The position numbers were made by a program, and so were the translations under genes. Shown here piece after piece: positions 20,246 to 48,923 of a stretch of 64,000 nt of DNA (positions are counted from its first letter, which is position 1; the number at the start of each line of letters is the position of its first letter). The stretch is from Candidatus Omnitrophota bacterium (lineage in GTDB: Bacteria > Omnitrophota > Gorgyraeia > Gygaellales > Profunditerraquicolaceae). The notes under the pieces are model-generated. The model saw nothing but the letters and a program-made list of their open reading frames with translations, did no database searches and was not told where the DNA came from. The DNA lies in NCBI GenBank assembly GCA_041662125.1, contig JBAZTA010000005.1, positions 52,978-116,977 on the forward strand, in the 5' to 3' direction.

Positions 20246-20246
20246 T

Positions 20247-25146: not shown

Positions 25147-26609
25147 TCAATTGATCTCTGCCCAAACCGTATATTTTGAACCATGATTTCTTCCTGCTTT
25201 TGCTTCAACAGAATCAATAGGCATTAATGACCGGAATCCGCCCATAAATCTATAATTTTCCCCATCAGTAGAAAAGAAGTTTCTGTCAATATACGTATAT
25301 GTTTGCCCGCCGGTCTTGTTTTTTATTATTGGGGTTTTCATTTCAGGCTGTAAAACGTAGGGCCCTCTTTCACGCAGTCCTTTTTTTAATTCTATCCTGA
25401 ACTTTGCATTTTTTAATGAACCTCTGGTATGGCCGTAACATCCATAGCTGGCTTGCATTGGTTTAGCGTGTAAAGCTATCCCCCGGGGGTCTATCTTTGT
25501 GAGATCTATCCCTTGCGATATTAAAAATGCGATTAAATCCTTATTCGCCGCTTTTGTTGTTTTGAATTCATTTTTTTTATTTGGAGGGGTTATATGAGTT
25601 TCAACATCCTCGTAGGCATGTACATCGTAAGACATCCCTAATGCCGACATCCATGCTTTAGTATCATTGATGCGTTTTGAATTACCGGTTCCCCAGGCGG
25701 GATTATCAATATTAAGCGTCAGGCTATTTGCCTTTATTGTTTGCCTGATGGAGTCATTTTCCAAGAGCGGGATATTGATCTTTGTGCTCGGCTTTTTCAA
25801 TTTCGCTATAGGATCAGAGGCGCGCGCGTACAAAAGGTAATCGCATTGTCCGTTGTTTTTCTTTAAATAGCGTTCGAACTCGTGCGGGCCGAAAAACCTG
25901 TCAAATCCTGAAAACTTCATTACTTCTTTATCGGATACTGTCTCTTTTCCTTTTTTGCCAAATTCTGATTCCTTCATTTCCTGGTATTTTTGGTTAGTAA
26001 CCGCTAATAAAGCAATTTTTCTCCTGAATTTATGCCTTAAATTATCGAGAGAAGCTCGAAAATGTTTTTTAAAATACGAGTTTTTATTCCCGCATGAAAA
26101 AATGCATTCCCAAAGCTGGTACATAGCCAGGGAGTTTTCTATTTCAAATGTCCTTCCTCTTAAAGCTTCGCGTACTTCTGCTTCATTGAGATGAGCTGCT
26201 AATCGCAGGAATTCATCCGGCAATCCGACCATATCAATCTGGACCCAGGCATTAATGGGGGTTGCGTCCGGTTTCATGCAATATTGATAGTCTGTGTCAA
26301 ATTCTCTGTTTGCTTCTACTAAAGGGCGAAAAGCTTTGTTATATTCCGCATATAGATTACAGAGAGCCTGAGAGACCACGTGAGGGTATTGAGTTTTATA
26401 TTCAGGTAAGACATGAAATGATGCCGGTGAGAGTAAGCCTTCATTTGTTCGAATAAGCATCTGAATGTCTTCTTTTTCTATTGTGGAGCCCAGGAGGGCG
26501 GTTTGGGGAGTTTCTATGCATTTATCAAGAAACTTCCTTGCTGAAAATCCTGATAGGGGGAGTTTTTTGTTTGTGTTACCCCTGTTTTGCATAGAATATC
26601 GCGGTAATT
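25147..26609 (-). CDS. Hypothetical protein, no confident family
   Basis: Long minus-strand ORF convergent with the upstream '+' operon. Start placed at the MRKELPRY methionine; N-terminal extension in the ORF track reads as low-complexity. The C-terminal region (YGCYGHTRG ... GGFRSL) is faintly ATP-grasp-like but unassigned. Confidence 0.5.
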
Positions 26610-26792
26610 CTTTTCTCATGCGGGTTTGGTTAATATTAAGAAGCCCCAGCCGTATAATAATACGGAATAAATTACTGTTTATGCAGTTCAACGTTATTAT
26701 ACTGATATAGCCGTAAGAAATCAAGCGATTGCAATTTGCTTAAAAAGTAAATGAGGGAATTGAGGAATGGCTGGTGTGCTGCTTTCTGCAGT

Positions 26793-30244: not shown

Positions 30245-30389
30245 GTATAGGTTTAAGCAGCTTAAAAAAGGCAAGTCATCTGTTGTTTTCTGACGGAAGA
30301 TTTGCCTTTTTTATTGCCGCGTTTATACCGATTTCTCGCTCTTGATAAGGCTTGAAATTCTCATAATTAACGATATAATGATAAAGGTT

Positions 30390-31580
30390 ATGCCAAAGAT
30401 CAATCTCCTTTATATCATTACGAAATTAGAGCTGGGTGGGGCGCAAAAACAACTCTTAAGCTTGATTGCCAGCCTTGATAAAACCAGGTATACTGTCGTA
30501 TTGTTTACCGGTAATAAGGGGTTGTTGTTACAGGATTTTGCCTCAATTCCCGGGGTGACGATCCAGGCGTCGCGGTTTCTGGAAAGGCCGATCAATCCTT
30601 TAAAAGATCTTATAGCTTTCTTTGAGATTTATTGGTTCATCCGGAAACAAAAGTTCCATATCGTCCATACGCATAGTTCTAAAGCCGGAATTATTGGCCG
30701 CCTTGCCGCGCGGATGGCTCATACGAGTTGTATTATTCATACGGTGCATGGGTGGCCGTTCAATGATCATCAGCCTGGTTTTGTAAGATTTGTTTACATT
30801 TGGCTTGAAAGGATATGCGCGCGGTATTCTGATAGAGTGGTTGTTGTTTCGCGTTTTGATAAACAAAAGGGGCTTACCCAAAAGATCGGCAGGGAACCTG
30901 TGTATTGCCTGATACGCTATGGGATTGATCATGATAAGTTCAGGCGTCAAAAAGAAGATGTCCGGATGAGTGTAAGGGACAGTTTCGCAATACGAGCGGA
31001 TGAATTGCTCATCGGTATGGTCGCCTGTTTTAAACCTCAAAAAAACCCCCTTGATTTCATCAGGGTAGCTTCCTTAATAAGGGATAGCGTAGCGCCTGAA
31101 AAAGTTTCTTTGGGCGTCAAATTCCTGCTTATCGGAGATGGGGTTTTACGCGGCCGTATTGAGGAATTGACCCATGCGTATGGGCTCGATGAACAGGTGA
31201 TCTTAGCCGGCTGGCGGCAAGATATGCCCGCGCTTTTTTCTGCAATGGATATTCTGGTTCTGACTTCTTTATGGGAAGGAATGCCTATCGTGGTATTGGA
31301 AGCGATGCGATGTGGTGTGCCGGTAGTCGTAACTAATACCGGAGGGGTAGCTGAAGTAGTTAAAGATGGCGTGACCGGATTTTTAGTACTTGCGCATGAA
31401 CCCGCATTGATGGCGCAGCAGGTGAGCGTTTTATTAAAAAACGATATTTTAAGGAAACGCATGGGGCAGACAGCAGCAGAGGCGTTGGGAGATAGCTTTC
31501 GCGTTGGAAACATGGTGGTAGAGACGCAAGAGATGTATGAGGATATCTTGAAAAAAAAGGGGCCCGGTTATGATCACTAA
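30390..31580 (+). CDS. Family 4 glycosyltransferase (GT4, retaining, GT-B fold)
   Basis: N-terminal KINLLYIITKLELGGAQKQLL. C-terminal EGMPIVVLEAMRCGVPVVVTNTGGVAEVV (E-x7-E motif). Start ambiguous (30342 TTG, 30378 ATG, 30390 ATG); 30390 chosen for the MPKI + AAAGG context. Confidence 0.7.
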   Translation: MPKINLLYIITKLELGGAQKQLLSLIASLDKTRYTVVLFTGNKGLLLQDFASIPGVTIQASRFLERPINPLKDLIAFFEIYWFIRKQKFHIVHTHSSKAGIIGRLAARMAHTSCIIHTVHGWPFNDHQPGFVRFVYIWLERICARYSDRVVVVSRFDKQKGLTQKIGREPVYCLIRYGIDHDKFRRQKEDVRMSVRDSFAIRADELLIGMVACFKPQKNPLDFIRVASLIRDSVAPEKVSLGVKFLLIGDGVLRGRIEELTHAYGLDEQVILAGWRQDMPALFSAMDILVLTSLWEGMPIVVLEAMRCGVPVVVTNTGGVAEVVKDGVTGFLVLAHEPALMAQQVSVLLKNDILRKRMGQTAAEALGDSFRVGNMVVETQEMYEDILKKKGPGYDH

Positions 31581-32556
31581 ATTTGTTCTCTTGTTTCTTA
31601 TCGCCTCAGGCGTGAGTTTTTTGTTTTTGCTTTTTTTTATGAAGCGATTCGCGAAATCAAAGGTTTTATCTGTGCGCGGCATCCCTCTTGTCGGAGGTAT
31701 CGCGATAGCTTTAAGCTTTTTGGGCGTAGCGGTTATTTGGCTTATCGGCGGCGGCTTCTGGTCAAAAGAACTCTTCGGATTGCTGGGGGCTTCAATGGTT
31801 ATGTTAGTTTTCGGCATTGTTGATGATGTTAGAGAATTATCCGTTGCATCTAAATTCGCGGTCCAGATCATTGCGGCTTTGCTGCTCATTTTTTTCAATG
31901 TAAGGACCCAAATCGCCTTGATCGGCACTATTCCTAATGCGCTTATTACGTTGGTGTGGGTGGTCGGAATCACCAATGCGTTTAATCATTTGGATGTTAT
32001 GGACGGTTTGGCTGGGGGTGTTGCCATGATCGCGGCGTTTTCTTTCTTCGTTCTGGGGCTGTTTCAATATGATTTAAGTATCGCGATCATTTCGATAATA
32101 TTAGCCGGCACTCTTTTAAGTTTCTTGATTTATAATGTTCCTCCTGCCCGTATGTATATGGGTAACTCCGGCAGTCATTTCTTAGGTTTTGTCCTGGCAG
32201 CGATTGCTTTAGTCCTGCAATACGCTCAAATGGAAAACCGGGTAGCGTTGTTGAGCCCTCTTTTGATCCTGGGTTTTCCGATTTTTGATACGATATTTGT
32301 CATGCTGGTGCGTATGCGGCGGAAAAAATCGGTTTTTAAGAAAAGTATTGATCATTTTGCGTTGCGATTGCTCAAAGCCGGGTTTTCAAAACGAAAGGCG
32401 TTGTTGTGTATGGGGGGCGTGTCTTTAATTTATTCCTGCTGCGGAGTTGTTTTGCATGTTCTCAAGAATCAAACGGGGATTATTGTCATCTTAAGCTTAG
32501 TTCTCTGCAGTTTTCTGCTAACCAAAGCTGTCGGTAAAGCATCATTAGATGGTTAA
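31570..32556 (+). CDS. Polyprenyl-phosphate N-acetylhexosamine-1-phosphate transferase (WecA/MraY family)
   Basis: GIPLVGGIAIALSFL, IVDDVRELS, NAFNHLDVMDGLAGG motifs. ~10 TM helices. Confidence 0.85.
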   Translation: MITKFVLLFLIASGVSFLFLLFFMKRFAKSKVLSVRGIPLVGGIAIALSFLGVAVIWLIGGGFWSKELFGLLGASMVMLVFGIVDDVRELSVASKFAVQIIAALLLIFFNVRTQIALIGTIPNALITLVWVVGITNAFNHLDVMDGLAGGVAMIAAFSFFVLGLFQYDLSIAIISIILAGTLLSFLIYNVPPARMYMGNSGSHFLGFVLAAIALVLQYAQMENRVALLSPLLILGFPIFDTIFVMLVRMRRKKSVFKKSIDHFALRLLKAGFSKRKALLCMGGVSLIYSCCGVVLHVLKNQTGIIVILSLVLCSFLLTKAVGKASLDG

Positions 32557-33853
32557 AAAAAGAATTATTATTTTAGGGGCAGGTGTTGCTGGTTTGAGCG
32601 CTGCATGGCATTTGCAGAAAAACAATATTGATTGCCATGTGTATGAAAAAGAAGATGAAGTAGGCGGATTATGCCGCTCCCAGAAAATAGAAAATTTTAC
32701 TTTTGATTATTGCGGGCACGTACTGCATTTCAGGCACGCGTATGTGTTTGATCTGATCAAAAAGATGTTAGGCGGCAATTTAGCCGCACATCGAAAAAGC
32801 GCCTGGGTCCATTCGTTTGGGGTTGATACCCGTTATCCTTTTCAGGCAAATCTTTTCGGGTTGCCGCATTCGGTCGTTGAAGAGTGCCTCTTGGGTTTTA
32901 TTGAGGCGCAAAAGAGTGATGGTAAGGGAATCGGTCAAAAACAGGATTTCTCCTCCTGGATACATGCTACATTTGGAAACGGTATCGCGCGTCATTTCAT
33001 GATCCCCTATAATACGAAATTCTGGACCATTGCGCCGGAGAAAATGACCTGCGAATGGTTTGATGGTTTTATACCCGTACCTACGTTAAGGGAAGTTGTT
33101 GAAGGGACTATTGAAGAAAGTAAACGGCAATTCGGCTATAATGCCCGGTTTTGGTACCCTAAACAGGGGGGGATAAGCCAAGTCCCTCAGGCGTTTGCCA
33201 AGGGGCTTGCGAATATATGTACCGGCATTCGAGTTACGGGGATCAATCTGGAAAAAAAAGAAATAACTCTTTCTTCCGGGCATAGCCAAGCTTTCGATTG
33301 TTTGATCTCGACACTGCCTTTACCTGAGGTGGCAAAGCTTTTGCATTGGATGCCGCCGGCGGCGAGGAGGTCGTTTGCAAAATTAAGATGGAATTCGATC
33401 TATAATTTGAATCTCGGATTTGATGGAGCAGAAGGGTCTCGGCGTCATTGGATATATTACCCGAAGCCAGATGTGTGCTTTTTTCGCGCTGGTTTCCCGC
33501 ACAATTTCTCTTCTGATCTTGTTCCGGCTCATAAAAGCTCTTTATATATTGAAGTCGCTTATTCACAAAAAAAAGATATTGATAAAAGGAGTATTATTGC
33601 CCGTATAAAAAAAGATCTAAAGAAAGTCGGCCTTTTTTCTGCGGAAAACCATGTGCGTGTCAGTCGTGGCAATGATATTCAATACGGGTATCCTTTGTAT
33701 GACAGAAATTATAACCTGGCGCGCAGTGTGATCGTACGCTACCTTTTGGGAAAAAACATGTTTTTATGCGGCCGGTATGGCTCATGGCGGTATATGTCCA
33801 TGGAGGATGCGATACTTGACGGCAAGAATACAGCGGAATCATTCTTATTATGA
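32549..33853 (+). CDS. FAD-dependent oxidoreductase (amine-oxidase / UDP-galactopyranose-mutase-like fold)
   Basis: N-terminal KRIIILGAGVAGLSAAWHL...VYEKEDEVGG (FAD-binding GxGxxG + acidic residue). Length 434 aa. Confidence 0.6.
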   Translation: MVKKRIIILGAGVAGLSAAWHLQKNNIDCHVYEKEDEVGGLCRSQKIENFTFDYCGHVLHFRHAYVFDLIKKMLGGNLAAHRKSAWVHSFGVDTRYPFQANLFGLPHSVVEECLLGFIEAQKSDGKGIGQKQDFSSWIHATFGNGIARHFMIPYNTKFWTIAPEKMTCEWFDGFIPVPTLREVVEGTIEESKRQFGYNARFWYPKQGGISQVPQAFAKGLANICTGIRVTGINLEKKEITLSSGHSQAFDCLISTLPLPEVAKLLHWMPPAARRSFAKLRWNSIYNLNLGFDGAEGSRRHWIYYPKPDVCFFRAGFPHNFSSDLVPAHKSSLYIEVAYSQKKDIDKRSIIARIKKDLKKVGLFSAENHVRVSRGNDIQYGYPLYDRNYNLARSVIVRYLLGKNMFLCGRYGSWRYMSMEDAILDGKNTAESFLL

Positions 33854-34629
33854 TACAAAACAGGATCAAAGCGCTTTTTCTTTACCGGCATACGCTCTGG
33901 GATATGGCGATCTCACAGCTTAAAGCGCGGTATGCATCATCTTTTTCCGGGATATATTCTTCTTTGATCAGCCCTTTCTTGATCATGTCGGTCATAACAT
34001 TTGTTTTTACCTGTGTTTTTAAAGTGGAGATGCGTAATTTTCCTTTGTTTATTTTCTCGGGTATCATTCCCTGGATGTTTTTCTCAAACGCGTTAACAGA
34101 ATCTGCGTCTTCCATTTTGAACCAACTTAACATTTTGCGGCAGTTTAACCTCCCCCGGGAAATCTTGCCGTTAAGCTGTGTCTTGGCGCATTTTCTTAAC
34201 TTTCTTGTCGGTTGGGTGGTTCTCTATCCGGTTTTTTTGTTTTTTAACCCGAAAATAATCCTTCTTTTGCCGTTTTTATGTATCATCATTCTTCTTCACC
34301 TGGTTTTGCTGCTGGGGTTGGGGCTGCTTTTATCAGTCCTTACCGTTTTATTCCGGGATATCGTTTATTTACTCTCAGTCGCACTTATGTTCCTGTTTTG
34401 GATCACTCCTGTTTTTTATTCCACTGCTGTCATGCCCGCGCAGTTCCAGTGGATATTTAACTTTAATCCCATGGTCCCGTTTATCCTTGCCTATCAGAAG
34501 ATCCTTTATTACGGCGTCATCCCTGAAACCTTTTTGATCTTGAGTGTTTTTTCCTGGTCAGTGATGAGTGTTATTCTGGGTTTTATTGTTTTCTCGCGTC
34601 TTGAGAATAAGATCTTAAAAAATATATAA
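33850..34629 (+). CDS. wzm: ABC-2 type polysaccharide exporter permease (Wzm/KpsM/TagG family)
   Basis: LFLYRHTLWDMAISQLKARYASSFSGIYSSLISPFLIM motif region. 6 TM helices. Start overlaps upstream stop (ATGA). Confidence 0.8.
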   Translation: MIQNRIKALFLYRHTLWDMAISQLKARYASSFSGIYSSLISPFLIMSVITFVFTCVFKVEMRNFPLFIFSGIIPWMFFSNALTESASSILNQLNILRQFNLPREILPLSCVLAHFLNFLVGWVVLYPVFLFFNPKIILLLPFLCIIILLHLVLLLGLGLLLSVLTVLFRDIVYLLSVALMFLFWITPVFYSTAVMPAQFQWIFNFNPMVPFILAYQKILYYGVIPETFLILSVFSWSVMSVILGFIVFSRLENKILKNI

Positions 34630-37350
34630 ATGAAGATCATTTCTTTTAACGATGTCTGGGAAATGTACCGCCTTAAGATGGTGGTAGCTCATAAGGCGCA
34701 GTGGGAAAACTTCTGGGCGTTAAAAGGAGTTTCTTTCGATATTGAGCAGGGAGAGACGGTCGGGCTTATCGGCGGCAATGGCATGGGTAAAACAACCATA
34801 TTAAAATTGATCATGGGTATGCTGCAGCCGGACAGGGGCCAGATCAAAGTAAACGGCAGAGTGTCTGGTTTACTGGAGTTAGGCGCCGGATTTCAACCGG
34901 AGTTGACGGGATTAGAGAACGTTCATTTGAATGTCGGCTTGTTTGGCGTTGCGCATAATGAAATCGATGAGAGAGCGAAAGATATTGTCAGTTTCGCTGA
35001 AATCGGCAGGTTTATAAACGCGCCGGTTAAATGTTATTCTCAGGGTATGTTTGTAAGGCTTGCTTTTGCCATCGCCATACACGTTAATTTCGAGATCCTT
35101 TTAATTGACGATATCTTGGCGGTCGGCGACGAATTTTATCAAAGAAGGTGTATTAAGAAGATTTTGGAACTAAAAGAACAGGGCAAGACTATTATTTTTG
35201 TCAGCCATGACCTCGCTCTGCTGGGGCGCCTTTGTAAAAGGGCATTGTTTATGAAAGACGGGCGGTTGATCAAAGATGACCTTATCGATAATTCTATTTC
35301 ATTATATTCACAGACGATAGGTGCCAAAGAAGGCGTGGCGGTTTTAGAGAAGAAGCCCCTCGATGTTGTTTTTAATAATGGCAGTGTTTTCTTTAATTGG
35401 AATGAAAAACTCCTGACCCCTAATACCGGAGTGACGAGTTCTTTTTTTATATCAAACCAATGGTATAGTTCTACCCAGGCTGAATGGGAAGTCACTCAGG
35501 TCAGTGAGTCTGAATTTTGTGCCCGTGGCGTTTTCTATCACGTGCCGTTAACGATACTCTGGAGAATATCTCTATGCGAAGGAAATGAGATAAAGTTCAG
35601 TTTCAGCAGTGAGGCTTCCCGGCTACTGGAGATCAAAACGGGGCATATCGATTTTATGTTCATTAATGAATATGCCCGGTGGGTAACTGCGGTCGAGTCA
35701 GGCGAATTCCCTGTTATTGATTTGCAAGACGCGCATGCAAAGCCTCAGCTTGAGCACAATGTTTCACGCCAGTCTATAGGCCTGCTCGCCGGGGGCCACC
35801 GGCGTGAAGTTTTCATTCCGTCTTTGGGCATTTCTTATGATAGCTGTACGCAGGTAAAGAAGACCCAAGTGTATAACACTGACTATATGGGGAATTGCCG
35901 GCTCATACGATTTAGCACTGGCGCTTTCTTTCAAGACGCCGGCTTAGAGCCTCAAGCGTCCGTTTATTTTCAAGGGTCGGTTGTGTTTAATGTCCCTGAT
36001 ATCAACAGCTTTTTGATCCAGAAACAGAATGATGTAATTCTGACTCAAGGCGATCTTCGCTTGATGTTTAATAATGGCTCATGTTTGCTTGCCTGGGCAG
36101 GCATTTATTTGACAAAGACGTATCATTTGATAACGTTGATCTTTTCGAAAGGAAAACAATGGCCTTCTAATAACGCGCAGTGGGATGTTGAGAAGGCCGG
36201 CGTTTATTCCTTGACTGCTCGGGGAATCCGTCCGGGGCTCGGCTTTGTTGAAGTATGGCGCCTGGAGATCACGGGAAAATCTTCTTTCCGCTGGCAAGTT
36301 GGACTTGAAGTCAAACAGGAGATCCCTCTTGAAGAACAATATATGTGTTTTATGTGTTCAGAGCAGTATCGCTCCTGGTTTGCTGCCCATGGCAGGGGGA
36401 GTTTTCCCGATAATTTTCTGGAAACAGATGTAGACGTTGCGCAGCGGTGTATCGGTGAGGGATCAGTCGGCGTATACAGTGAGAATAAACAGTTCCCAAC
36501 TTTAACGGTCAGGTTTTCCAAAGAGCTGAATAATTTCGCCAAGATAATGAATGCTGATTTTAATGAAAGAGCCCGGATCGTGCGCATTCAAAGGGTTGAG
36601 CCGGAAAAGGATATTCTTCATTCTCCCGGGACGTATCCTTGCCTGGATGTGGAAGTGGTATTGGGTGAGGATGCCCCTCAGGGCACTGAATCCGCCCGTA
36701 GTACGGTGCAGTCGGATAAACTAAAGTTCGTCTTTGAGAAAGGACGGGGTGAGTTGTTTTGGGATGGTGTCGAGCTCACGAAACGTTTGGGATTCTATAC
36801 TGCTTTACGTTGCGGCGGGCGTTGGTATGATTCTTTGTCTGATGCGCTCTGGAAAGTGCAGCAGAAAGATACGTTGGTGTCCGCGCGAGGTAAATGGCAG
36901 CATTTGCCTGTAAGCCAGGTATGGGAAATACGGCTACATTCCAGCACTTCGATCGAAGTAGTGGTAAAAATGATCGTTGAGCAGGAAATAGAAGTCGACC
37001 GGATACAGGCAAACCTGATGCTGTTAGAACGGTATACCCGCTGGACGGCAGGGAAAAGTTCCGGGGAATTTTCCGATTTTAAAGATACTCTTGATGATGA
37101 TTGGGATAGTGTTTACCGGGAAACCAATGGTTTGGGATGTATCGGCGTAGGAGCCGTTAAAGACTCATCTGTGTATATGCCTGCTGTGCATGTTTCTTAT
37201 AGGAAATCAAGTTTTACCTGGGTGCCGACAGTTATTAATTCTGACATTTATCATCGAGCCAGAGTCCTTCAAATGTTGAACTCAAAGACTCAGAAGATAC
37301 CCGCTGGTGAATACATGTATTTCATCGGTGAAATAAAGATCTCCCATTAA
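34630..37350 (+). CDS. wzt: ABC polysaccharide exporter ATPase (Wzt/KpsT family) with ~650-aa C-terminal extension
   Basis: Walker A GGNGMGKTT, signature/Walker B region LLIDDILAVGDEF, H-loop VSHD. Residues ~250-906 are extra and have no recognised motif. Confidence 0.8.
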   Translation: MKIISFNDVWEMYRLKMVVAHKAQWENFWALKGVSFDIEQGETVGLIGGNGMGKTTILKLIMGMLQPDRGQIKVNGRVSGLLELGAGFQPELTGLENVHLNVGLFGVAHNEIDERAKDIVSFAEIGRFINAPVKCYSQGMFVRLAFAIAIHVNFEILLIDDILAVGDEFYQRRCIKKILELKEQGKTIIFVSHDLALLGRLCKRALFMKDGRLIKDDLIDNSISLYSQTIGAKEGVAVLEKKPLDVVFNNGSVFFNWNEKLLTPNTGVTSSFFISNQWYSSTQAEWEVTQVSESEFCARGVFYHVPLTILWRISLCEGNEIKFSFSSEASRLLEIKTGHIDFMFINEYARWVTAVESGEFPVIDLQDAHAKPQLEHNVSRQSIGLLAGGHRREVFIPSLGISYDSCTQVKKTQVYNTDYMGNCRLIRFSTGAFFQDAGLEPQASVYFQGSVVFNVPDINSFLIQKQNDVILTQGDLRLMFNNGSCLLAWAGIYLTKTYHLITLIFSKGKQWPSNNAQWDVEKAGVYSLTARGIRPGLGFVEVWRLEITGKSSFRWQVGLEVKQEIPLEEQYMCFMCSEQYRSWFAAHGRGSFPDNFLETDVDVAQRCIGEGSVGVYSENKQFPTLTVRFSKELNNFAKIMNADFNERARIVRIQRVEPEKDILHSPGTYPCLDVEVVLGEDAPQGTESARSTVQSDKLKFVFEKGRGELFWDGVELTKRLGFYTALRCGGRWYDSLSDALWKVQQKDTLVSARGKWQHLPVSQVWEIRLHSSTSIEVVVKMIVEQEIEVDRIQANLMLLERYTRWTAGKSSGEFSDFKDTLDDDWDSVYRETNGLGCIGVGAVKDSSVYMPAVHVSYRKSSFTWVPTVINSDIYHRARVLQMLNSKTQKIPAGEYMYFIGEIKISH

Positions 37351-39272
37351 TGGATATTTCTATAGTTGTTCCGACATTTAACCGTAAAAATAAGCTTAAA
37401 TCCTGCCTGGAATCGATTTTTGCCCAGGATTACCCCTTAGAGCGTTTTGAAATTATTGTTGTTGATGACGGCTCTACTGATGGGACCAAGGACATGGTTG
37501 CAGCATTAAAGCCTGCTTTTCCTCATCTGCGTTATTACTATCAGGAGAATCAAGGGCCGGCAGCTGCCAGGAATTTCGGGGTCAGGCAGTCAAAAGCTGA
37601 CATCGTAGGGTTTACTGATGACGATTGCCGATTAAGCAGATCATGGGTGCGCGCGATGCTTGCATCGTATGCTTTAGAGCCTTTGGCAGACGTTGTCGGA
37701 GGCAAAACAAGCGTTGATGCGCGCAACATAAAAGCGCTGGTGAGCCAGTCTTTAAGTGACGGCGCGATATTCGCGGATATAGGGGTTGAGAAAAAGATAA
37801 TTTTTTTCCCGACCTGTAATGTCTCTTATAAAAAAAGCTCTGTGAACGCAGAATTTGCTCAGTCATTCTGTTTTCCTGCCGGTGAAGACCTGGAGTTTTT
37901 CTGGAGGCTGTATAAGGGCGGAAGCAGGTTTGTTTTTAATAAAAATATCGCAATCACTCACAATTGCCATATGAACCTGAGGTCGTTTATTCGTCAGGCA
38001 TACTTATACGGCAGAGGTAATTTCCGGGTTAAGTATGTCCATCAAGACCATCCTTTATTAAAAGAAATAAAAACGAACAATATTTTTTGTTTCTTCGGGG
38101 CAACAATACTTAATTTATTGAAAATACCGCGTTTTGCTTATACGTTAGGTTTTTCTTTGGTGAAAAAACACCGCATCCGCGGGTTTTATACGCGGCTGCA
38201 GGTTTTTGCGTTTTTTATACTGCATAAGGTCGTGTATTTGCTTGGCAATTTTGTCGAATATTTCACGGTCAGAAAAATGGCTCAACCAGGACAAAGCGTT
38301 GATTGCCCTTCTATAACAAACAGCCTTCTCAAGCCGGAAACTATTATATTGGATATTACGCATCGCTGTAATCTTTTCTGCACAATTTGCGATATAAGAA
38401 AAGATAAACCTATTCTTGAATATTCCACGCAGGAAGTAAAAGATCTTATCGTGCAGGCAATTGACTGGGGAGTTCATGATTTTGTGCTCTCCGGCGGGGA
38501 AGCGCTCATGCGCAAGGATATTCTCTCAATCCTTGATTTTGTTAAGGAAAAGAAGTATTGCGTTGGTTTGCTGACAAACGGAATTTTGCTCACTCAGGAT
38601 TTCCTCAGGGTACTTTTGCCGTATTTAACTTCTGGTTCGTTATCGCTCTGTATCTCTCTTGATAGTTTGCGCGCCGCTGTTCATGACGAGATCCGCGGTC
38701 TGCCGGGGTGTTTTGATAAAACATTCGCGGGTATTACAATGCTTGCGCAGCAAAAACAAGTTTTTCCGAACATAAATTTTAACGTGATCACGATCATACT
38801 CAACGAAAACTTAGAAGAGCTGCAGACGATCGCCAGTACTGTTTTATCGTTGAATGCTAATTCTTTGCAATTTCAGCCTTTACTTTCCAATAACCGGATC
38901 TTGAAAGACAGGGCAGATAAGGTTAAATATTGGGTGCCTCGAGAACGAATACCGGTCCTTGATAAAGCCATCGATGCTCTGGTCGTCTTTAAAAAGGCTA
39001 ACCCCGCGTTTATGAGGAATTCTGAAAACAATCTTGAATTAGTAAAGAAATATTTCCGGGGAAGCCTTGTAAATTCTGATATACAGTGCCATAACGCGGC
39101 AAAAACTATGCTTATTGCCTATACCGGCGATATAACGACTTGTTTTGATTGTTATGGAAATATACGCAAAGAGCCCTTAGAGCAAATCTTTCATGCTCCT
39201 GCGGCAGAGCAGGCGCGCCGGAAAGCTGCCGGTTGCGCAGCACCGTGCCTGCTGCCATGTTTTACCGACTAA
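37350..39272 (+). CDS. Fusion protein: N-terminal family 2 glycosyltransferase + C-terminal radical SAM/SPASM domain
   Basis: N-term ISIVVPTFNRKNKLKSCLESI...EIIVVDDGSTDGT...FTDDDC (GT2). From ~aa 330 ILDITHRCNLFCTICDI (CX3CX2C), LSGGEALMRKD and C-terminal Cys cluster (CHNAAKT...TCFDCYGN...CAAPCLLPC). Single uninterrupted ORF of 640 aa. Confidence 0.75.
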   Translation: MDISIVVPTFNRKNKLKSCLESIFAQDYPLERFEIIVVDDGSTDGTKDMVAALKPAFPHLRYYYQENQGPAAARNFGVRQSKADIVGFTDDDCRLSRSWVRAMLASYALEPLADVVGGKTSVDARNIKALVSQSLSDGAIFADIGVEKKIIFFPTCNVSYKKSSVNAEFAQSFCFPAGEDLEFFWRLYKGGSRFVFNKNIAITHNCHMNLRSFIRQAYLYGRGNFRVKYVHQDHPLLKEIKTNNIFCFFGATILNLLKIPRFAYTLGFSLVKKHRIRGFYTRLQVFAFFILHKVVYLLGNFVEYFTVRKMAQPGQSVDCPSITNSLLKPETIILDITHRCNLFCTICDIRKDKPILEYSTQEVKDLIVQAIDWGVHDFVLSGGEALMRKDILSILDFVKEKKYCVGLLTNGILLTQDFLRVLLPYLTSGSLSLCISLDSLRAAVHDEIRGLPGCFDKTFAGITMLAQQKQVFPNINFNVITIILNENLEELQTIASTVLSLNANSLQFQPLLSNNRILKDRADKVKYWVPRERIPVLDKAIDALVVFKKANPAFMRNSENNLELVKKYFRGSLVNSDIQCHNAAKTMLIAYTGDITTCFDCYGNIRKEPLEQIFHAPAAEQARRKAAGCAAPCLLPCFTD

Positions 39273-39287: not shown

Positions 39288-40421
39288 ATGAGTATTGATC
39301 ATAAACGGTTGTTGTATTTGGCGCGGCGCGGCTTTCTGTTTTGGCTTTCCCGGAAAATTGACTATCCGCTTGTTTCCCCTGATTGCCTGCAGATCAATTT
39401 TACCTTCCGCTGTAATTTGCGTTGTAAAATGTGCAGTATGCAGGAGCGTATGGAGTCGTTTCGCCTGCAAAATAAACAAATAGAATTAGATAAGCAGACT
39501 ATAAAAAAGCTTATTAAAGAAGCCTTTGCTATGGGTGTTGTGTATTTGATCTTGATAGGAGGGGAGCCGTTCTTAGACCCCGGGATATATGAGATCATTG
39601 CATATGCCAAACAATGCGGGATGCGTGGTGTGACTGTTGTTACTAACGGGACGCTGTTTTCTGAACCTGTTATAAAGGAAATTTTTGATTGTAAGCTGGA
39701 TAACTTAAGTATTTCTATCGATGCGGCTTCAGAGGCAGTTGTTTCTCAAATACGAGGGGAGAACGTTTTGCAAAAGATCATCGATAACGTAACGCTGCTT
39801 AACCGGATGAAAGAACGCGCTCAGTTGGCCCTGCCGAATATTGTATGTGTATGCACAATTATGAACCAAAATGTGCATGAGATCATGGATGTTGTCGCGT
39901 TGTGCCGGAAGTTAAAGATCCCGCGGATCATCTTTCAGCCCGTTGTGCACGACAATACCGATCAAAACCGTATTGATTTCAGTTCCGATGTTTTTATCCC
40001 GGCACAAAAGTTTTCGGTGCTCGATGGTGCAATTGATTCCCTTATTGAGTATAAGCAATCAAATCGTAATAATTATGAGTTTGTTGCCAATTCGACCGTC
40101 CATTTAAAGCTAATAAAAAAATATTTCCGCTCTGCTTTAAAACCCCGGGAGCTGCCTTGTTATTCCGGTTTTAATCGTATTCAGGTGGTCCAGGAAGGAA
40201 AAATATATTTTTGCGTTAATCAGTCTGAGCATGAAGCAGTCGTGGGGAATATGAATACCGATAGTTTGAAAGCAGTGTGGTTTTCAAAAGAAGCCCGGGA
40301 CTTAAGAAAATTGATACGTAAATGCGTGTTTCCCTGTTTGCAGTGGTGCGCGTACCGCGATGAATTTATTGAGATATCAGATATTTGGGAAAAAAACAAG
40401 CTTTTTAAAAACAATCCGTAG
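39288..40421 (+). CDS. Radical SAM enzyme with SPASM-like domain
   Basis: FTFRCNLRCKMCSM, IGGEPFLDP. C-terminal CYSGFNRIQV...CVNQSEHEAVVGNM...CVFPCLQWC. Confidence 0.75.
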   Translation: MSIDHKRLLYLARRGFLFWLSRKIDYPLVSPDCLQINFTFRCNLRCKMCSMQERMESFRLQNKQIELDKQTIKKLIKEAFAMGVVYLILIGGEPFLDPGIYEIIAYAKQCGMRGVTVVTNGTLFSEPVIKEIFDCKLDNLSISIDAASEAVVSQIRGENVLQKIIDNVTLLNRMKERAQLALPNIVCVCTIMNQNVHEIMDVVALCRKLKIPRIIFQPVVHDNTDQNRIDFSSDVFIPAQKFSVLDGAIDSLIEYKQSNRNNYEFVANSTVHLKLIKKYFRSALKPRELPCYSGFNRIQVVQEGKIYFCVNQSEHEAVVGNMNTDSLKAVWFSKEARDLRKLIRKCVFPCLQWCAYRDEFIEISDIWEKNKLFKNNP

Positions 40422-40439: not shown

Positions 40440-41864
40440 ATGAGAAACGCTCAAAAACAGGCAGAGTTAGTTTTGGTTATGTGCCCCTTATGGGGCGTAT
40501 CTCAGCCTCCGATCAGTATCAGTTACCTCAGTGGGTTTTTGCAGAAGCATGGTGTCAGTGTCAGATGTTTTGATTTTAGTTCGGCGTTGTATAGGGTTTT
40601 TCCGGAAAAGAAGTGCTGGGACTTGAATTTCCCGGAATATTTTATGTCTCCTGAACTTTTTAACCGGCATATCAAACCTGTTTTAAATCCGGTTATCAGC
40701 GATTGGGCTGGGCAAATTCTGGCGTTGCGTCCTTCTGTGGTAGGGTTTTCTTTATTTATGTCAAATATGTCTGCGAGTTTGCTTTTAGCTCAGGAGCTCA
40801 AAAAACGTGCCCCTGATCTTCTAATCGTCGCGGGAGGCTGTGAAGTCACCAGGATCAAACGCATATACGTTGACGGCATACAGCGCAGAGCGCATCTGGA
40901 TACCGATGTTATAGACAGCGGTGTTTTTGACCTGTTTATTGACGGGGAGGGGGAACAATCACTCTTGGAAATAGTTTCTTTGATCAGGAAAAATGAGGAT
41001 TTTCATTTGATCAAGGGCGCAGTGTTCCGCCAAAATGGGAAGTTTGTTGCCAACCCGCCGCAAGAGCTCATGGCTAACCTCGATATCGTGCCGCCTCCTG
41101 ATTTCCATGATTTTTTTCTTGATGATTATACAAGGCGCAGCCTGCCGATCGTTACCAGCCGCGGTTGCGTGAACCGGTGTACTTTTTGTGCCGACAGCCC
41201 TTTGTGGAAAGTCTACCGGTACCAGTCAGCGGAAAAAGTTTTTAACGAATTCTCTTTCTTATCCAAAGAATACGGCATCTCTGATTTTGAAATAGTCGAT
41301 TCAACGTTTAACGGTAATATCGAGCGCGTGGATAAGCTCTGCGCGTTGATCATTAAGTCTGGCTTAAAGATCCGCTGGGCAGCAAAAGCGACGCTGCGCA
41401 AAGAAATGGATCATGCTTTGTTATGCCATATGCAAAAAGCCGGTTGCGTCGATCTTGCTTATGGCGTAGAAAGCGGCTCCTACCGTGTGCTGCAGGATAT
41501 GCGTAAGAATACCGATCTGCTTGAGATCAAAAGGATCATACGAGATACCTGGAAAGCAAAGATCCGGGTGAATAGTTTTTTCCTGATCGGTTACCCGACA
41601 GAAACGGAAGATGATTTTCAGTTAACCCTTGATTTTGTCAAGGAAAACGCGCGCTATATTCATCGTTTTGACCAGATCACCGGTTGCCATTTAGAAGAAG
41701 ATTCTTATTTGAGCCTTAATGCACAGCAATATGGTATCGAGATAAAAGATGACGGGTGGTGGAGCCCTGTGAGCACGCCTGCTATACGTAAAGACCGGCT
41801 CAATAGGTTTCGTGAACTTGCGCGCAAACTCCATGCGCATTATCGCTGTGAAGTGCAGCTGTGA
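40440..41864 (+). CDS. B12-binding (class B) radical SAM enzyme
   Basis: TSRGCVNRCTFCADS, GVESGSYRVLQDM. N-terminal B12-binding-like domain. Confidence 0.75.
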   Translation: MRNAQKQAELVLVMCPLWGVSQPPISISYLSGFLQKHGVSVRCFDFSSALYRVFPEKKCWDLNFPEYFMSPELFNRHIKPVLNPVISDWAGQILALRPSVVGFSLFMSNMSASLLLAQELKKRAPDLLIVAGGCEVTRIKRIYVDGIQRRAHLDTDVIDSGVFDLFIDGEGEQSLLEIVSLIRKNEDFHLIKGAVFRQNGKFVANPPQELMANLDIVPPPDFHDFFLDDYTRRSLPIVTSRGCVNRCTFCADSPLWKVYRYQSAEKVFNEFSFLSKEYGISDFEIVDSTFNGNIERVDKLCALIIKSGLKIRWAAKATLRKEMDHALLCHMQKAGCVDLAYGVESGSYRVLQDMRKNTDLLEIKRIIRDTWKAKIRVNSFFLIGYPTETEDDFQLTLDFVKENARYIHRFDQITGCHLEEDSYLSLNAQQYGIEIKDDGWWSPVSTPAIRKDRLNRFRELARKLHAHYRCEVQL

Positions 41865-43021
41865 TACATATGAAACTGCTTAAAGAATTAGAAAAGAACC
41901 TGGGGTATTATTTCTCAGGGGTAGTTAATGCCCCTTTGAGTAAACCGCATTGGATATTTGTGAGCCTGACGCATCGCTGTAATTATTCTTGTCAAATGTG
42001 CGGAGTAAGCAAGATCTTACGGGAGCATGAGTTGGATTTTGGGCTCCTGCAAAAAGTTTTTAAAGAGATAGCAGGATGGGATTCTGATTGTGTCATGGTT
42101 TTTACCGGCGGGGAGCCTTTTTTGCGCAAGGATATATTTGAGATCATTGCCTGCGCGGTTTCTCTGGGAATTAAAACTGAGTTGGTCAGCAATGGAAGCC
42201 AAATTATAGACAGGGCTATCGCGCGCAAGATAATACGTTCGGGATTAAGCAATATCGCTATTTCTCTTGATGGCGCATCTGCAAAGGTCCATGATGGCAT
42301 ACGGGGAGTTCCCGGCGCATTTGAGATGGCTTTGGATGCGTTAGGCTTCTTAAGTGAAGAAAAAAAGTTGTATCCTTGCGGCCCGCAGATCTCTGTTTGG
42401 ACGACCATAATGAAAGAAAATGTATTTGAGTTGTCACAGATCATTCCCGTAACCAGGGCGCAAGGCGTTGAATGCCTCGTATATCACCCGGTGATTGTGA
42501 CGCAAGATGATATGCAAAATACGATCAAATCCGGGCATTTTTGGGTTACCGAAGAATATATCGCGCCTTTAAAACAACAAATAGAAAAAATAGCCGCATA
42601 TCAGAAGAAAGAAGGGTATGTCGCATTTTTGCATGACCCATTTTTATGGCTTCGATATTTTCAGTGGGATCTTACAAAAGAAGACTGGAAATGTAATCCT
42701 TTTGTTTTTATTGATATCGGGCCTGATGCCTTTGTAAGAAGCTGCGGCCCGGCTTTTGGCAATGTCAAAGAAATGACCTTGAGTGAATGTTTAGAGACTA
42801 AGGAAGCAAATCGGGCGCGGGAAAGAATGCTGCGCTGTGATCGGCCGTGTTTACAGACTTGCTGGGGCAGGCCGGAGGCCGACGCTTTAGAAGATATCGT
42901 GCGGAATTTCAGCAAAGAAGTAGAGGGCTTGCGCGTTTCAAAAGGGCGGAAAAAAGATGTGTTGAACGCTGCTGTCGCGTTATTGTCACGGTATGAATCC
43001 ATGATCCGCAAAGATTATTAA
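41861..43021 (+). CDS. Radical SAM enzyme with SPASM-like domain
   Basis: LTHRCNYSCQMCGV, FTGGEPFLRKD. C-terminal CGPAFGNVKEM...CDRPCLQTC. Confidence 0.75.
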   Translation: MIHMKLLKELEKNLGYYFSGVVNAPLSKPHWIFVSLTHRCNYSCQMCGVSKILREHELDFGLLQKVFKEIAGWDSDCVMVFTGGEPFLRKDIFEIIACAVSLGIKTELVSNGSQIIDRAIARKIIRSGLSNIAISLDGASAKVHDGIRGVPGAFEMALDALGFLSEEKKLYPCGPQISVWTTIMKENVFELSQIIPVTRAQGVECLVYHPVIVTQDDMQNTIKSGHFWVTEEYIAPLKQQIEKIAAYQKKEGYVAFLHDPFLWLRYFQWDLTKEDWKCNPFVFIDIGPDAFVRSCGPAFGNVKEMTLSECLETKEANRARERMLRCDRPCLQTCWGRPEADALEDIVRNFSKEVEGLRVSKGRKKDVLNAAVALLSRYESMIRKDY

Positions 43022-43023: not shown

Positions 43024-44187
43024 ATGGAACCACGATTATCAGAAGTGATTATTTCGATCACAAACCGCTGTAATTTGCAGTGCGCGATGTGCCAGATACC
43101 GTTGAGGGCTGCTCCGGAAATGACGACGCCTGAACTCAAAGGCTTGATCGAGGATATCGTTGATCTGCATCCCCGCAGTATCGTTTTTAGCGGCGGGGAG
43201 CCGCTCATGCGTCCTGATATCGGCGAGCTGATCGCGTTCGCGAATCAGCGTAAAGTCAATACCTGCCTTACCTCAAACGGGACAATGATCACTGATCAAA
43301 CGGCTGCCATGCTTGCCTCATCAGGTGTGGGCGTGGTCAATGTTTCTATTGAGGGTGGCCAAGAGATCCATGACGCGTTGCGCGGGCGCGGTAATTATAA
43401 GAAAGCTGTTGATGCTTTGGAAAACTTACGGCGCCATAAGATCGAAACAACGATCGCTACCATGGTATGTAACCTGAATTTCGGCTCCCTTTCTGAAGTC
43501 ATGGAATTGGCCGCTCGTTTTGGGGTAACGACGGTAAAATTCCAGCCGTTCAGCGATATATTCTTAAAGGATAAGGCGGACGCCGGCCGGTTTTTTTGCG
43601 GCGAAAAAACAATCGATGATATCCGCGGGAACATAGAAAAAGTCATAGAACTCTCCAGGAAATACAGGATTTCTACTAATCCGCCTGCTTATCTGAGGAA
43701 TATTCCCGAGTACCTCACGGGCATGAGCAAGTATAGTACAAATGTTCAATGCCCTGCTTTATGGACTTCCTGCCCGATCTCTTCAGAAGGGGATGTCCAT
43801 CTCTGTTGGGTGCTTTCTGAAATTGTTATCGGCAATTGTAAGAGTAAAAAGATCACTGAGATCTGGGGCTCGGTTGCCCATGACCGGTTGCGAAAATCCG
43901 TGCTGAAAGATAAATGTTCAGGCTGCCTTATGAGTTGCTATGATACGCAGTACGGTACCAATAGTATCCCTGAATTGATAGCTCTTAAAGCCCGGAAAAT
44001 AAAACAGCCTCAATTCTACAAGCGCCAGTATTTTAGGGCGTATCAATACGCGCAATACCTTTTTAAGAAAGTTTTCAATACCCTGCTGCGTTTAAATAAT
44101 CCTCTTAAGAAAAATAAAAAAGCGGTATCCCTGGTTTTAGACGAGATTCGCGCCGCAAAAGATTTCTTAAGGAAACAAATGCATTGA
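43024..44187 (+). CDS. Radical SAM enzyme with SPASM-like domain
   Basis: ITNRCNLQCAMCQI, FSGGEPLMRPD. C-terminal CPALWTSCPISSEGDVHLCW...CSGCLMSCYD. Confidence 0.75.
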   Translation: MEPRLSEVIISITNRCNLQCAMCQIPLRAAPEMTTPELKGLIEDIVDLHPRSIVFSGGEPLMRPDIGELIAFANQRKVNTCLTSNGTMITDQTAAMLASSGVGVVNVSIEGGQEIHDALRGRGNYKKAVDALENLRRHKIETTIATMVCNLNFGSLSEVMELAARFGVTTVKFQPFSDIFLKDKADAGRFFCGEKTIDDIRGNIEKVIELSRKYRISTNPPAYLRNIPEYLTGMSKYSTNVQCPALWTSCPISSEGDVHLCWVLSEIVIGNCKSKKITEIWGSVAHDRLRKSVLKDKCSGCLMSCYDTQYGTNSIPELIALKARKIKQPQFYKRQYFRAYQYAQYLFKKVFNTLLRLNNPLKKNKKAVSLVLDEIRAAKDFLRKQMH

Positions 44188-45470
44188 GAGTGGATAGTAT
44201 GAATGATGTTTGCCTCTATATTCCCTGCTATAATTCTGAAAAAACGATTCGTTTGAGCCTTGAGGCAGTGTTAAAGCAGTCGTATCCGTTAAAAGAGGTC
44301 CTCGTTATTGATGACTGTTCCAGCGATAAAAGCGTTGAGATCGTTTCGTCATATCCGGTAAAACTCCTGCGGCTTGATACTAACAGCGGGTTGGCATCGG
44401 TAAGGAATATTGCAATACATACTTTAAAATCTGAATATGTCGCATCGGTGGATGCGGATTGTGTGCCTGAAAAAGATTGGCTCAAGTATAGTATGCGCAG
44501 ATTCGACCGGAAAGGGATTGCCGGGGTAGGCGGAAAGCTTGTTGAGCGAAACCAGTCGAGCTTAGCTGATATCTGGCGCAGCGTGCACATGAAGCAGCAC
44601 TGGGATGGGGCAGGGAATAACCCTGAATTTTTATTCGGTTCAAATACTGTATTTAAAAAAGAAACTTTGGTGAATATTGGAGGTTATAACGAAATATTAA
44701 GGAATAATTACGAGGATGTTGATATTTGCAACCGCTTGGAGAAGGCGGGGTATAGTTATGTATACGAGCCTGAGGCGATAGCGTATCATTATAAACAGGA
44801 TGATGCCTGTTCTGTCCTTAATAATTTCTGGAGATGGTATTTCCCGTATAATCAGAGCCAGGGCTTTTATTCCGGTGAGGAAAAATTATTGTTAAAGGTA
44901 AAGGATAACCTGGGGTTGGCAAACCGTTTTATCGGTGAGGATGCGGCTGCCGGCCGCCAGGAGCTGCTTTATTTGGATTTTCTACTGGCGTTCCATCATT
45001 CGTTAAAAGACCTGGAATATATGTTTATTTGCCAATCTTCGTCGTATCCTGATTCTCTGCCGTCTACCTATTGGCTGTCGTTAGTTGATCTGACGTTCGC
45101 ATGCCACGTAAACCTGCCGGGCAAGGATTTGCTGACTTTTTTGCCTGAGTCAAACGCTTTTGTCCAGAACTGCCTCGCGCTTAACCTGATCTTAGGAGGA
45201 TTGTTGAAAAAAGAATTTAAGAGTGACAATTTTAACAGGCTTTTGTTTAAACATCTGCTGTTTTCTTTGGATACCTTTGATGATGATGCTTTCTTGGACG
45301 CTATGGCTAACCTGGTTAATTATCATACGGATTGGCGCCTGTTGTTTCAGGCGAAGCATCCGTATCTTAATTCTTTGTTCCTTGAGCATTTTATTAATGT
45401 TTTCAACAATTGGATCTGGAACCTCAAGCCCTGCATTAAAGGGATTGAATCGTCCGCTCAAAAATTTTGA
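44184..45470 (+). CDS. Family 2 glycosyltransferase with C-terminal extension
   Basis: CLYIPCYNSEKTIRLSLEAVLKQSYPLKEVLVIDDCSSDKS. DAD motif. Confidence 0.75.
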   Translation: MRVDSMNDVCLYIPCYNSEKTIRLSLEAVLKQSYPLKEVLVIDDCSSDKSVEIVSSYPVKLLRLDTNSGLASVRNIAIHTLKSEYVASVDADCVPEKDWLKYSMRRFDRKGIAGVGGKLVERNQSSLADIWRSVHMKQHWDGAGNNPEFLFGSNTVFKKETLVNIGGYNEILRNNYEDVDICNRLEKAGYSYVYEPEAIAYHYKQDDACSVLNNFWRWYFPYNQSQGFYSGEEKLLLKVKDNLGLANRFIGEDAAAGRQELLYLDFLLAFHHSLKDLEYMFICQSSSYPDSLPSTYWLSLVDLTFACHVNLPGKDLLTFLPESNAFVQNCLALNLILGGLLKKEFKSDNFNRLLFKHLLFSLDTFDDDAFLDAMANLVNYHTDWRLLFQAKHPYLNSLFLEHFINVFNNWIWNLKPCIKGIESSAQKF

Positions 45471-45496: not shown

Positions 45497-45913
45497 GTGA
45501 CTATGAAAAGAAAAAAGATGCCGACAACACGTGTTTTAGATCTTACCGCGATAGCGGTCCTGGTGGTGGGGCTTGTATTATGCGGCTATGTGCTTTTTTT
45601 TAAGTTTATCGGTGTCAAGTCGGTGCTCATCAGTATTGTAACATTTCTGATGAGCGTTGTTTTAGCCGCGTTGATCCGCATGATCGGGATAATGGGTGAG
45701 TTCCTGTATACGATCACAGAATCTTTGTTTACCCTGAATCAATCGGTTGTATCATTGTCTGATGATGTTTTACGCCAGGAGCTATCGGAAATCTCGGAAA
45801 TAAAGCATGGTATTGAGAAAATAAGTTCAGACACAAAAGATATTACCGTGAGTATTGATGATATTAATGTTTTTTTTCAGAAAATAGAGCGGCATTTAGA
45901 CCTGAAAAGATAA
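45497..45913 (+). CDS. Small membrane protein, hypothetical
   Basis: AAAAGGAG RBS upstream. Two TM helices, then a predicted coiled-coil tail. Confidence 0.5.
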   Translation: MTMKRKKMPTTRVLDLTAIAVLVVGLVLCGYVLFFKFIGVKSVLISIVTFLMSVVLAALIRMIGIMGEFLYTITESLFTLNQSVVSLSDDVLRQELSEISEIKHGIEKISSDTKDITVSIDDINVFFQKIERHLDLKR

Positions 45914-48918: not shown

Positions 48919-48923
48919 ATACG

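Follow-up and report, generated by a model that had tools for sequence, protein, structure and literature searches.

A Wzt-Type Exporter ATPase from Candidatus Omnitrophota with a Tail of Three Tandem Modules Predicted to Adopt a β-Supersandwich Fold

In the present study, we analyzed the open reading frame (ORF) at positions 34630-37350 of the + strand in a 64,000-nucleotide stretch of DNA (hereafter the window, meaning the whole stretch) from a metagenome-assembled genome (MAG) of Candidatus Omnitrophota. The ORF was single and uninterrupted and encoded 906 aa; an identical protein has been deposited as an 'ABC transporter ATP-binding protein'. Judged from its sequence, the product is the Wzt-type ATP-binding cassette (ABC) ATPase of a Wzm/Wzt glycan exporter, ATP-driven export itself being predicted. 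By the same kind of evidence, its long C-terminal tail consists of three tandem, anciently diverged copies of one ~220-aa module, and structure prediction assigns this module to the galactose-mutarotase-like class as a β-supersandwich of ~20 strands. We propose, with a probability of roughly 50%, that the modules bind the glycan of the surrounding gene cluster and couple its tailoring by radical S-adenosylmethionine (rSAM) enzymes to export. The exporter type is already known, whereas the recognition-domain family and its tandem, variable-copy architecture are new here.

In known ABC-transporter-dependent glycan pathways, one small jelly-roll domain reads one terminal cap and licenses export. 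In the Omnitrophota, which are ultra-small, uncultured and probably host-dependent bacteria, a different domain family without a Pfam or NCBIfam model is arrayed in tandem, with varying numbers of copies, and is found again on rSAM enzymes and GT-C glycosyltransferases from these clusters. Should the modules bind glycan, polysaccharide exporters would have solved substrate recognition structurally in a second, independent way. The modules would then also offer a means to find and purify the heavily rSAM-modified surface polymer of the Omnitrophota, and they would constitute a new carbohydrate-binding module (CBM) family for annotation. Current records give the proteins that carry the module no fuller name than 'ABC transporter ATP-binding protein' or 'radical SAM protein'.

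The nucleotide-binding domain (NBD) and its motifs were located as follows.

34630..35337, + strand: Wzt NBD, aa 1-236 (motifs, Pfam, NCBIfam and PDB match)
34771-34797, + strand: Walker A, GGNGMGKTT, aa 48-56 (motif in translation)
35035-35049, + strand: ABC signature, YSQGM, aa 136-140 (motif in translation)
35098-35112, + strand: Walker B, LLIDD, aa 157-161 (motif in translation)
35203-35211, + strand: H-loop, SHD, aa 192-194 (motif in translation)
35293..35313, + strand: hinge-helix segment SISLYSQ with Y226 (35305-35307) (alignment to A. aeolicus Wzt)

The Walker A, Walker B and H-loop motifs all lay where a preliminary description, made from the DNA letters, had placed them, and its confinement of the NBD to the first ~250 aa agreed with the ends of the matches at aa 239-242. 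On the whole 906-aa protein, Pfam returned ABC_tran alone (aa 31-161). The top NCBIfam models for the NBD were TagH and the Wzt/RfbE type (aa 14-242, E 6e-57 to 4e-44), with scores below the equivalog cut-offs of these models. The nearest solved structures were those of A. aeolicus Wzt (8DKU, 7K2T and 6AMX; E about 1e-63), and the alignment stopped at aa 239. It was observed in the residue-by-residue alignment that Y226 of the hinge helix pairs with Tyr233 of A. aeolicus Wzt, the hinge-helix NBD residue that touches the O antigen in the solved complex (PMC9445017). Y226 was at least 90% conserved in 30 homologues, and the linker motif KEG was retained. These alignments indicated that the NBD retains what canonical Wzt uses for cooperation with its carbohydrate-binding domain (CBD), namely the hinge Tyr. 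The protein was identified as Wzt because of the NBD motifs, the Wzt/TagH-type models, the adjacent Wzm permease and the setting in a glycan cluster.

The tail after the NBD comprised residues 237-906 (670 aa). This length bore out the earlier estimate of three to four times the usual, since the tails of canonical Wzt proteins measured 173-230 aa with a 143-position Wzt_C domain. The tail had also been described as free of recognizable motifs, and searches of Pfam, NCBIfam and PDB sequences gave no match to aa 237-906, either with the single sequence or with a 30-sequence profile. Its internal triplication had gone unnoticed. When the tail was cut at aa 237, 469 and 691, the three segments matched one another end to end, and self-comparison gave pairwise identities of 23-27% with E 3e-14 to 3e-18. 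The three modules (R1, R2 and R3) and their copies of a shared motif are listed below.

35338..36033, + strand: module R1, aa 237-468, NBD-proximal class, short linker helix at its end (self-comparison; hidden Markov model (HMM) domain aa 238-461; AlphaFold2 (AF2) tail model; class analysis)
35875-35901, + strand: R1 copy of the shared motif, NTDYMGNCR
36034..36699, + strand: module R2, aa 469-690, internal class, least conserved (self-comparison; HMM; class analysis)
36550-36576, + strand: R2 copy of the shared motif, NADFNERAR
36700..37347, + strand: module R3, aa 691-906, C-terminal class, most conserved (AF2, Foldseek, class analysis)
37237-37263, + strand: R3 copy of the shared motif, NSDIYHRAR

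The motif N-[STA]-D-x5-R was found in each of the three copies, and the number of invariant positions by class was 14 for R3, 11 for R1 and 3 for R2. We then compared 30 full-length homologues from independent assemblies, which were 31-84% identical over the full length and 23-80% over the tail. All 30 carried the same three modules at near-constant lengths (about 231, 222 and 216-224 aa). Orthologous modules resembled each other more than paralogous modules did, indicating that the triplication is old.

Because the window derives from a MAG, we considered whether the ORF could have arisen by chimeric assembly or from two or more genes wrongly called as one, an origin that the preliminary description had raised. 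Its probability is negligible, given that the ORF is uninterrupted, that the independent homologues share the same modules at near-identical lengths, and that a scan of one genome per species recovered 49 species-level loci with the same architecture and conserved neighbours. The independent homologues and the 49 syntenic loci together excluded an assembly chimera.

The maximum 19-residue Kyte-Doolittle mean in the tail was 1.21, and it did not exceed 1.54 in the 30 homologues. No transmembrane-like segment was therefore found by 19-residue hydropathy in the tail of this protein or of the homologues, suggesting that the tail is a soluble, cytoplasmic extension of the NBD. B. subtilis TagH (NCBIfam PRK13545, 549 aa) gave the best-scoring NCBIfam model for the NBD (aa 14-242, E 6e-57) and is likewise an ABC-2-type exporter ATPase with a long C-terminal extension; however, the match ended at model position 250 of 549, and the extensions are unrelated. 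The C-terminal extension of TagH crosses the membrane, and a membrane-spanning extension of this type was rejected for the present protein in view of the hydropathy result. The protein also resembles the Wzt/KpsT-type exporters that lack a CBD (K. pneumoniae O1/O2 Wzt and mycobacterial Wzt/RfbE, 9QFX) in NBD homology and in the Wzm partner. In those exporters the polypeptide stops at the end of the NBD, and export is linked to synthesis with no recognition of the chain (PMC11231755), in contrast to the 670-aa tail found here.

To predict the fold of the module, we ran AF2 on the tail alignment. The model had a mean predicted local distance difference test (pLDDT) score of 86.4 and a predicted template modelling (pTM) score of 0.52, and it consisted of three all-β domains of about 18-20 strands each with one short linker helix following module R1. 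When R3 was modelled alone, the pLDDT was 94.7 and the pTM 0.91. Foldseek with the three-module model gave weak E-values owing to the multi-domain geometry, so the single-module R3 model was used as the query instead. Against the PDB, it yielded matches with a probability of 1.0 and template modelling (TM) scores of 0.56-0.68 normalised to the module, 62 of them at E < 1e-3. The neighbours included cyclic β-1,2-glucan synthase (Cgs), galactose mutarotase, the N-domains of GH36/GH129 and of GH63 YgjK, the C-domain of GH38 α-mannosidase, LacZ domain 5, PL4 rhamnogalacturonan lyase and YidC P1. The structure prediction and Foldseek comparison that had been proposed for the tail thus returned a β-supersandwich with high confidence, and folds of this class are characteristic of carbohydrate-active enzymes. 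Searches of Pfam and of PDB sequences revealed no sequence-level homology to any galactose-mutarotase-like member family. The module is like the mutarotase-like supersandwich domains (GH36/GH129, YgjK, GH38, LacZ domain 5, Cgs, PL4 and YidC P1) in fold class and size. It differs from them in its setting, a tandem array on an ABC NBD, an rSAM enzyme or a GT-C enzyme as opposed to glycoside hydrolases, and it seems to differ from mutarotases in the catalytic His/Glu pattern, of which sequence conservation among the modules gave no sign.

Viral proteins were also found near the R3 model. The PBCV-1 minor capsid protein (8H2I chains) was among its nearest structural neighbours (TM about 0.6/0.5), and the uncharacterised BFVD chlorovirus proteins A7K9Q9 and M1H8F2 resembled it as well. 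A search of the viral fold library with the module returned only uncharacterised chlorovirus proteins and GH65-like matches.

We next compared the module with the CBD of canonical Wzt, using nine plasmid-borne Wzt proteins of 412-472 aa whose genes adjoin methyl-, sulfo- or pyruvyl-transferases, or further glycosyltransferases. As a positive control, Wzt_C was matched in three of the four canonical proteins scanned with Pfam (E 6e-31 to 1e-12). In the present protein, Wzt_C (PF14524) gave no match at E ≤ 0.01 over the whole length. A Pfam search of 41 isolated modules at E ≤ 10 gave neither a Wzt_C match nor a consistent family. The module HMM scored at most 2 bits on the nine canonical tails, hhalign of a 90-module alignment against the canonical-tail alignment gave a probability of 0.2%, and no Wzt CBD chain was among the best 50 Foldseek PDB matches of either the tail model or the R3 model. 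Identity of the module with the canonical Wzt_C domain was ruled out by the Pfam and hhalign results, by size and strand number, and by the best 50 Foldseek matches. A comparison of the kind suggested in the preliminary description, made with the C-terminal domains of these canonical proteins, showed no similarity, and its alternative of an annotated or standard CBM did not apply either: the module is duplicated, yet it lacks a Pfam model and does not resemble Wzt_C.

The protein shares with canonical Wzt (E. coli O9a, K. pneumoniae/R. terrigena O12 and A. aeolicus; 7K2T and 8DKU) a homologous NBD, an adjacent Wzm and a WecA-like initiator, as well as a soluble C-terminal β-domain directly after the hinge helix, with the hinge Tyr kept (Y226, corresponding to A. 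aeolicus Y233). Unlike the single CBD of canonical Wzt, which is a 143-position jelly roll, the module is predicted to be a supersandwich of about 216-232 aa with about 20 strands, and it occurs in three tandem copies here and in one to five or more in relatives. The partners also differ, being rSAM enzymes, and no canonical terminator gene was recognised in the window. In the literature consulted on Wzt CBDs and on Omnitrophota, we found no description of the module or the architecture, leaving aside the CBM survey of Mann, Kimber and Whitfield 2019 (Glycobiology 29:822), which may mention atypical tails.

To assess how widely the module occurs, we searched 1.84 billion representative proteins exhaustively with a profile at E ≤ 1e-3 and retrieved 635 clusters, 308 of them below 1e-30. 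Copy number was counted with a single-module HMM on 179 proteins, made up of 33 homologues from the first search together with those of the 150 best representative matches that were new (146 proteins). Wzt proteins with an N-terminal NBD carried one module in 2 cases, two in 21, three in 71, four in 12 and five in 11; a 2244-aa protein showed up to eight partial module matches. P0150 is a genuine single-module Wzt, and its module belongs to the R3 class; P0112 was rejected as a one-module Wzt, being a fragment truncated at a contig end. According to class-specific HMMs, the first module of an array nearly always belongs to the R1 class and the last to the R3 class, and the internal modules are variable. 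The Wzt relatives with one, two and five modules occupy the same cluster type.

Such arrays could serve as a spacer or molecular ruler, in which rigid tandem modules set the distance from the membrane or the NBD and so affect how long the chain becomes or how the export complex is arranged in space, with copy number tuning the length. The change of copy number in whole-module steps between fixed first and last classes fits this idea, as does the low conservation of the internal R2-class modules, and chain-length rulers do exist in ABC-transporter-dependent pathways, the WbdD coiled coil being an example. We nevertheless regard a ruler as improbable, since it leaves unexplained both the presence of the module on rSAM and GT-C enzymes and the conserved polar N-x-D...R motif in every copy, and the predicted inter-module geometry is uncertain.

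The module was not confined to Wzt, and in enzyme fusions the R3 class was mainly used. Two proteins (P0069 and P0154) combined an NBD, modules and a C-terminal rSAM/SPASM domain in one chain; a third (P0075) carried modules and rSAM/SPASM without an NBD and was surrounded by at least eight rSAM genes; and in P0123 the modules were interleaved with a B12-rSAM enzyme. Five proteins (P0062, P0097, P0149, P0159 and P0140) were GT-C membrane glycosyltransferases of the PMT_2 type, each bearing two or three modules at the C-terminus. By hydropathy count, these GT-C fusions have 7-10 transmembrane helices, a count that does not fix the modules to the cytoplasmic or the periplasmic side. On the contig of P0062 (locus L062), the GT-C-module fusion adjoins a B12-rSAM gene, two CobD/CbiB-like genes and a FecCD/Peripla_BP_2/ABC importer of the cobalamin or siderophore type, a neighbourhood that hints at a cobalamin supply tied to B12-rSAM enzymes.

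The fusions bear on a different role, in which the array is a protein-docking scaffold that recruits rSAM enzymes and glycosyltransferases to the transporter and binds proteins, not glycan, the fusions being the covalent form of the complex. It is in line with this role that modules, rSAM/SPASM and NBD occur in one chain, that wzt stands in tight, translationally coupled synteny with a gene for a fused GT2 glycosyltransferase and rSAM domain (GT2-rSAM), and that differences in copy number could reflect differing numbers of partners. On the other hand, the module is also found on GT-C enzymes and occurs singly, its fold class is typical of sugar-handling proteins, and one conserved residue set across positions and contexts fits a single common ligand better than many protein partners. 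A scaffold is therefore rather unlikely in our assessment.

This residue set was derived from 445 modules in Wzt, rSAM and GT-C contexts and consists of T27, S45, W51, W75, Y112, W115, F124, P161, N180 and R188 (R3 numbering); D182 was about 65% conserved. No His or Glu was invariant, and the conserved polar residues, as judged by sequence conservation, were N180, D182 and R188. We used these data to evaluate the proposal that the tail harbours an additional enzymatic activity, which had been offered in the preliminary description and gained no positive support. At least one supersandwich module would in that case be an enzyme acting on the glycan or on sugars, epimerase/mutarotase-like or lyase-like, making the protein a transporter-enzyme fusion. 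Galactose mutarotase and PL4 rhamnogalacturonan lyase, both among the structural neighbours, are indeed catalytic supersandwiches, and N180, D182 and R188 are polar and conserved. However, the 445 modules lack the invariant His/Glu pair of mutarotases and any invariant catalytic set of the His/Glu/Lys type, D182 varies, no Pfam enzyme family was matched even at E 10, and the repetition of one signature in three to five tandem copies is usual for binding modules and not for enzymes. These results suggested that catalytic modules are very unlikely.

All records with the module that name a phylum belong to the Omnitrophota; some third-party-annotation MAGs carry no label beyond 'uncultured Planctomycetales/Planctomycetia', 'bacterium' or 'uncultured bacterium', and for the wider family the taxonomic range was drawn from the few cluster members that are named. 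The genome scan used the tail alignment, and its two peptide patterns favour close orthologues.

We favour the reading in which the modules bind the glycan because the array sits at the position of the CBD, the hinge Tyr is retained, the fold class is typical of sugar-handling proteins, and the module has spread to tailoring enzymes and GT-C enzymes. It is further supported by the observation that, in the loci examined, the array always lies in glycan clusters rich in rSAM genes. The preliminary description had considered a multi-module reader of the glycan; the multi-module part was substantiated by the three homologous modules, and the glycan binding is what we infer. In the proposed mechanism, the Wzm/Wzt-type exporter would move a polyprenol-linked surface glycan, and three Omnitrophota-specific supersandwich modules, in a soluble, cytoplasmic array, would stand in for the jelly-roll, cap-binding Wzt_C. 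The modules would bind the finished glycan after tailoring by many rSAM enzymes, by carbamoyltransferases and possibly by sulfation, and through this binding, as with canonical CBDs, chains with the correct modifications, and no others, would be concentrated and cleared for export. The R1-class module may work against the NBD hinge helix, which keeps the Tyr matching the O-antigen contact of A. aeolicus, and the R3-class module may be the prototype of the units that bind the ligand. On rSAM and GT-C enzymes, the module would draw this polymer towards its tailoring enzymes.

Several points weigh against glycan binding. The inter-module arrangement of the tail model is unreliable (pTM 0.52), and the fold likeness is at superfamily level only, with 7-12% identity and a best E of 7e-7. 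The supersandwich fold also occurs in non-glycan proteins such as YidC P1 and the chlorovirus minor capsid protein. Any binding site is putative, and the conserved Trp, Tyr and Phe residues may be mere core residues. As the window contains no recognizable canonical terminator (WbdD-like kinase/methyltransferase or Kdo transferase), a 'cap' is hypothetical. The substrates of SPASM-type rSAM enzymes are usually peptides, and what is tailored here could thus be a non-glycan.

Glycan binding could be taken further in a tentative form. The module may be a phylum-specific, polymer-reading handle common to the exporter and to the rSAM and GT-C enzymes, by which the lipid-linked glycan is passed from enzyme to enzyme and then to the transporter, and the number and class of the Wzt modules would encode the rSAM marks or the chain length required before export. 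We consider this extension possible though doubtful; if it is true, the checkpoint would follow a logic unlike that of known Wzt systems with their one terminal cap.

The genes around wzt were assigned as follows.

30342..33853, + strand: GT1 glycosyltransferase, WecA-like GT4 polyprenyl-phosphate N-acetylhexosamine (HexNAc)-1-P transferase and FAD-dependent oxidoreductase (Pfam, NCBIfam, synteny)
33850..34629, + strand: Wzm-like ABC-2 permease, 259 aa (Pfam ABC2_membrane, E 3.7e-10; NCBIfam Wzm/RfbD-type permease)
37350..39272, + strand: GT2 glycosyltransferase (aa 4-265) fused to rSAM/SPASM (aa 336-629), 640 aa (Pfam)
39288-40421, + strand: rSAM/SPASM (Pfam)
40440-41864, + strand: B12-rSAM (Pfam)
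41861-43021, + strand: rSAM (Pfam)
43024-44187, + strand: rSAM/SPASM (Pfam)
44184-45470, + strand: GT2 (Pfam)
45913-47271, + strand: B12-rSAM (Pfam)
48103-50165, + strand: CysD-like (PAPS_reduct) and CysN-like (GTP_EFTU) pair, sulfate adenylyltransferase
14967-16673 and 55541-57226, + strand: two NodU/CmcH-type carbamoyltransferases
7014-8648, + strand: PMT_2-type GT-C glycosyltransferase without the module

The TAA stop of the wzm-like gene directly abuts the wzt ATG, and the ATG of the GT2-rSAM gene overlaps the wzt stop (TAATG); wzt is thus translationally coupled on both sides. The permease lies directly upstream in nearly all related loci, and the GT2-rSAM gene is kept downstream in most of them. 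In most loci with enough flank, the order was GT1, WecA-like, FAD-oxidoreductase, Wzm, Wzt, GT2-rSAM, rSAM/SPASM, B12-rSAM and further genes. The fusion of a glycosyltransferase with rSAM (37350-39272) is unusual in itself.

The window contained ten genes with radical-SAM domains (starts at 5172, 10381, 21214, 22302, 37350, 39288, 40440, 41861, 43024 and 45913), two of them with B12-binding domains, interleaved with GT2, GT1 and GT-C genes between 5172 and 47271. For a glycan locus, this content of rSAM genes is exceptionally high. The window further includes several GT2s, one GT-C, the two carbamoyltransferases, the CysD/CysN pair and a Wzy_C ligase-like gene. The presence of CysD/CysN within a glycan cluster suggests sulfation of the polymer, and a carbamoyltransferase was also found in the related loci L001, L009 and L014. 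The module HMM found no match in the window beyond the Wzt tail; the GT-C enzyme here lacks the module, whereas the same enzyme type in other Omnitrophota (P0062, P0097 and others) carries two or three C-terminal copies.

Further features of the window were recorded. Two paralogous proteins with a GDSL-like lipase/acylhydrolase and a long TPR array are encoded at 2265-3851 and 57223-58902 (+ strand), and GDSL-lipase genes recur in the related clusters L001, L061, L064 and L065. The adjacent ORFs 50172-51374 and 51420-52235 (+ strand) match positions 1-117 and 163-322, respectively, of the Pfam Phosphodiest model and could be a split gene, a frameshifted gene or a sequencing error; the second of them has a weak sulfatase match as well. 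Five ORFs of 263-525 aa are without a Pfam match (3858-5156, 8651-9442, 20145-21269 and 23805-25127 on the + strand, and 25147-26724 on the - strand). The ORFs 20145-21269, 21214-22380 and 22302-23771 overlap mutually by 56-79 nt, and 16703-20245 (+ strand) encodes a 1180-aa mid-locus protein with only a weak PQQ_2/β-propeller match. The G+C content was about 0.37-0.42 in 1-28000 and about 0.42-0.46 in 28000-64000; nearly all genes of the window lie on the + strand, and the GC skew is positive throughout.

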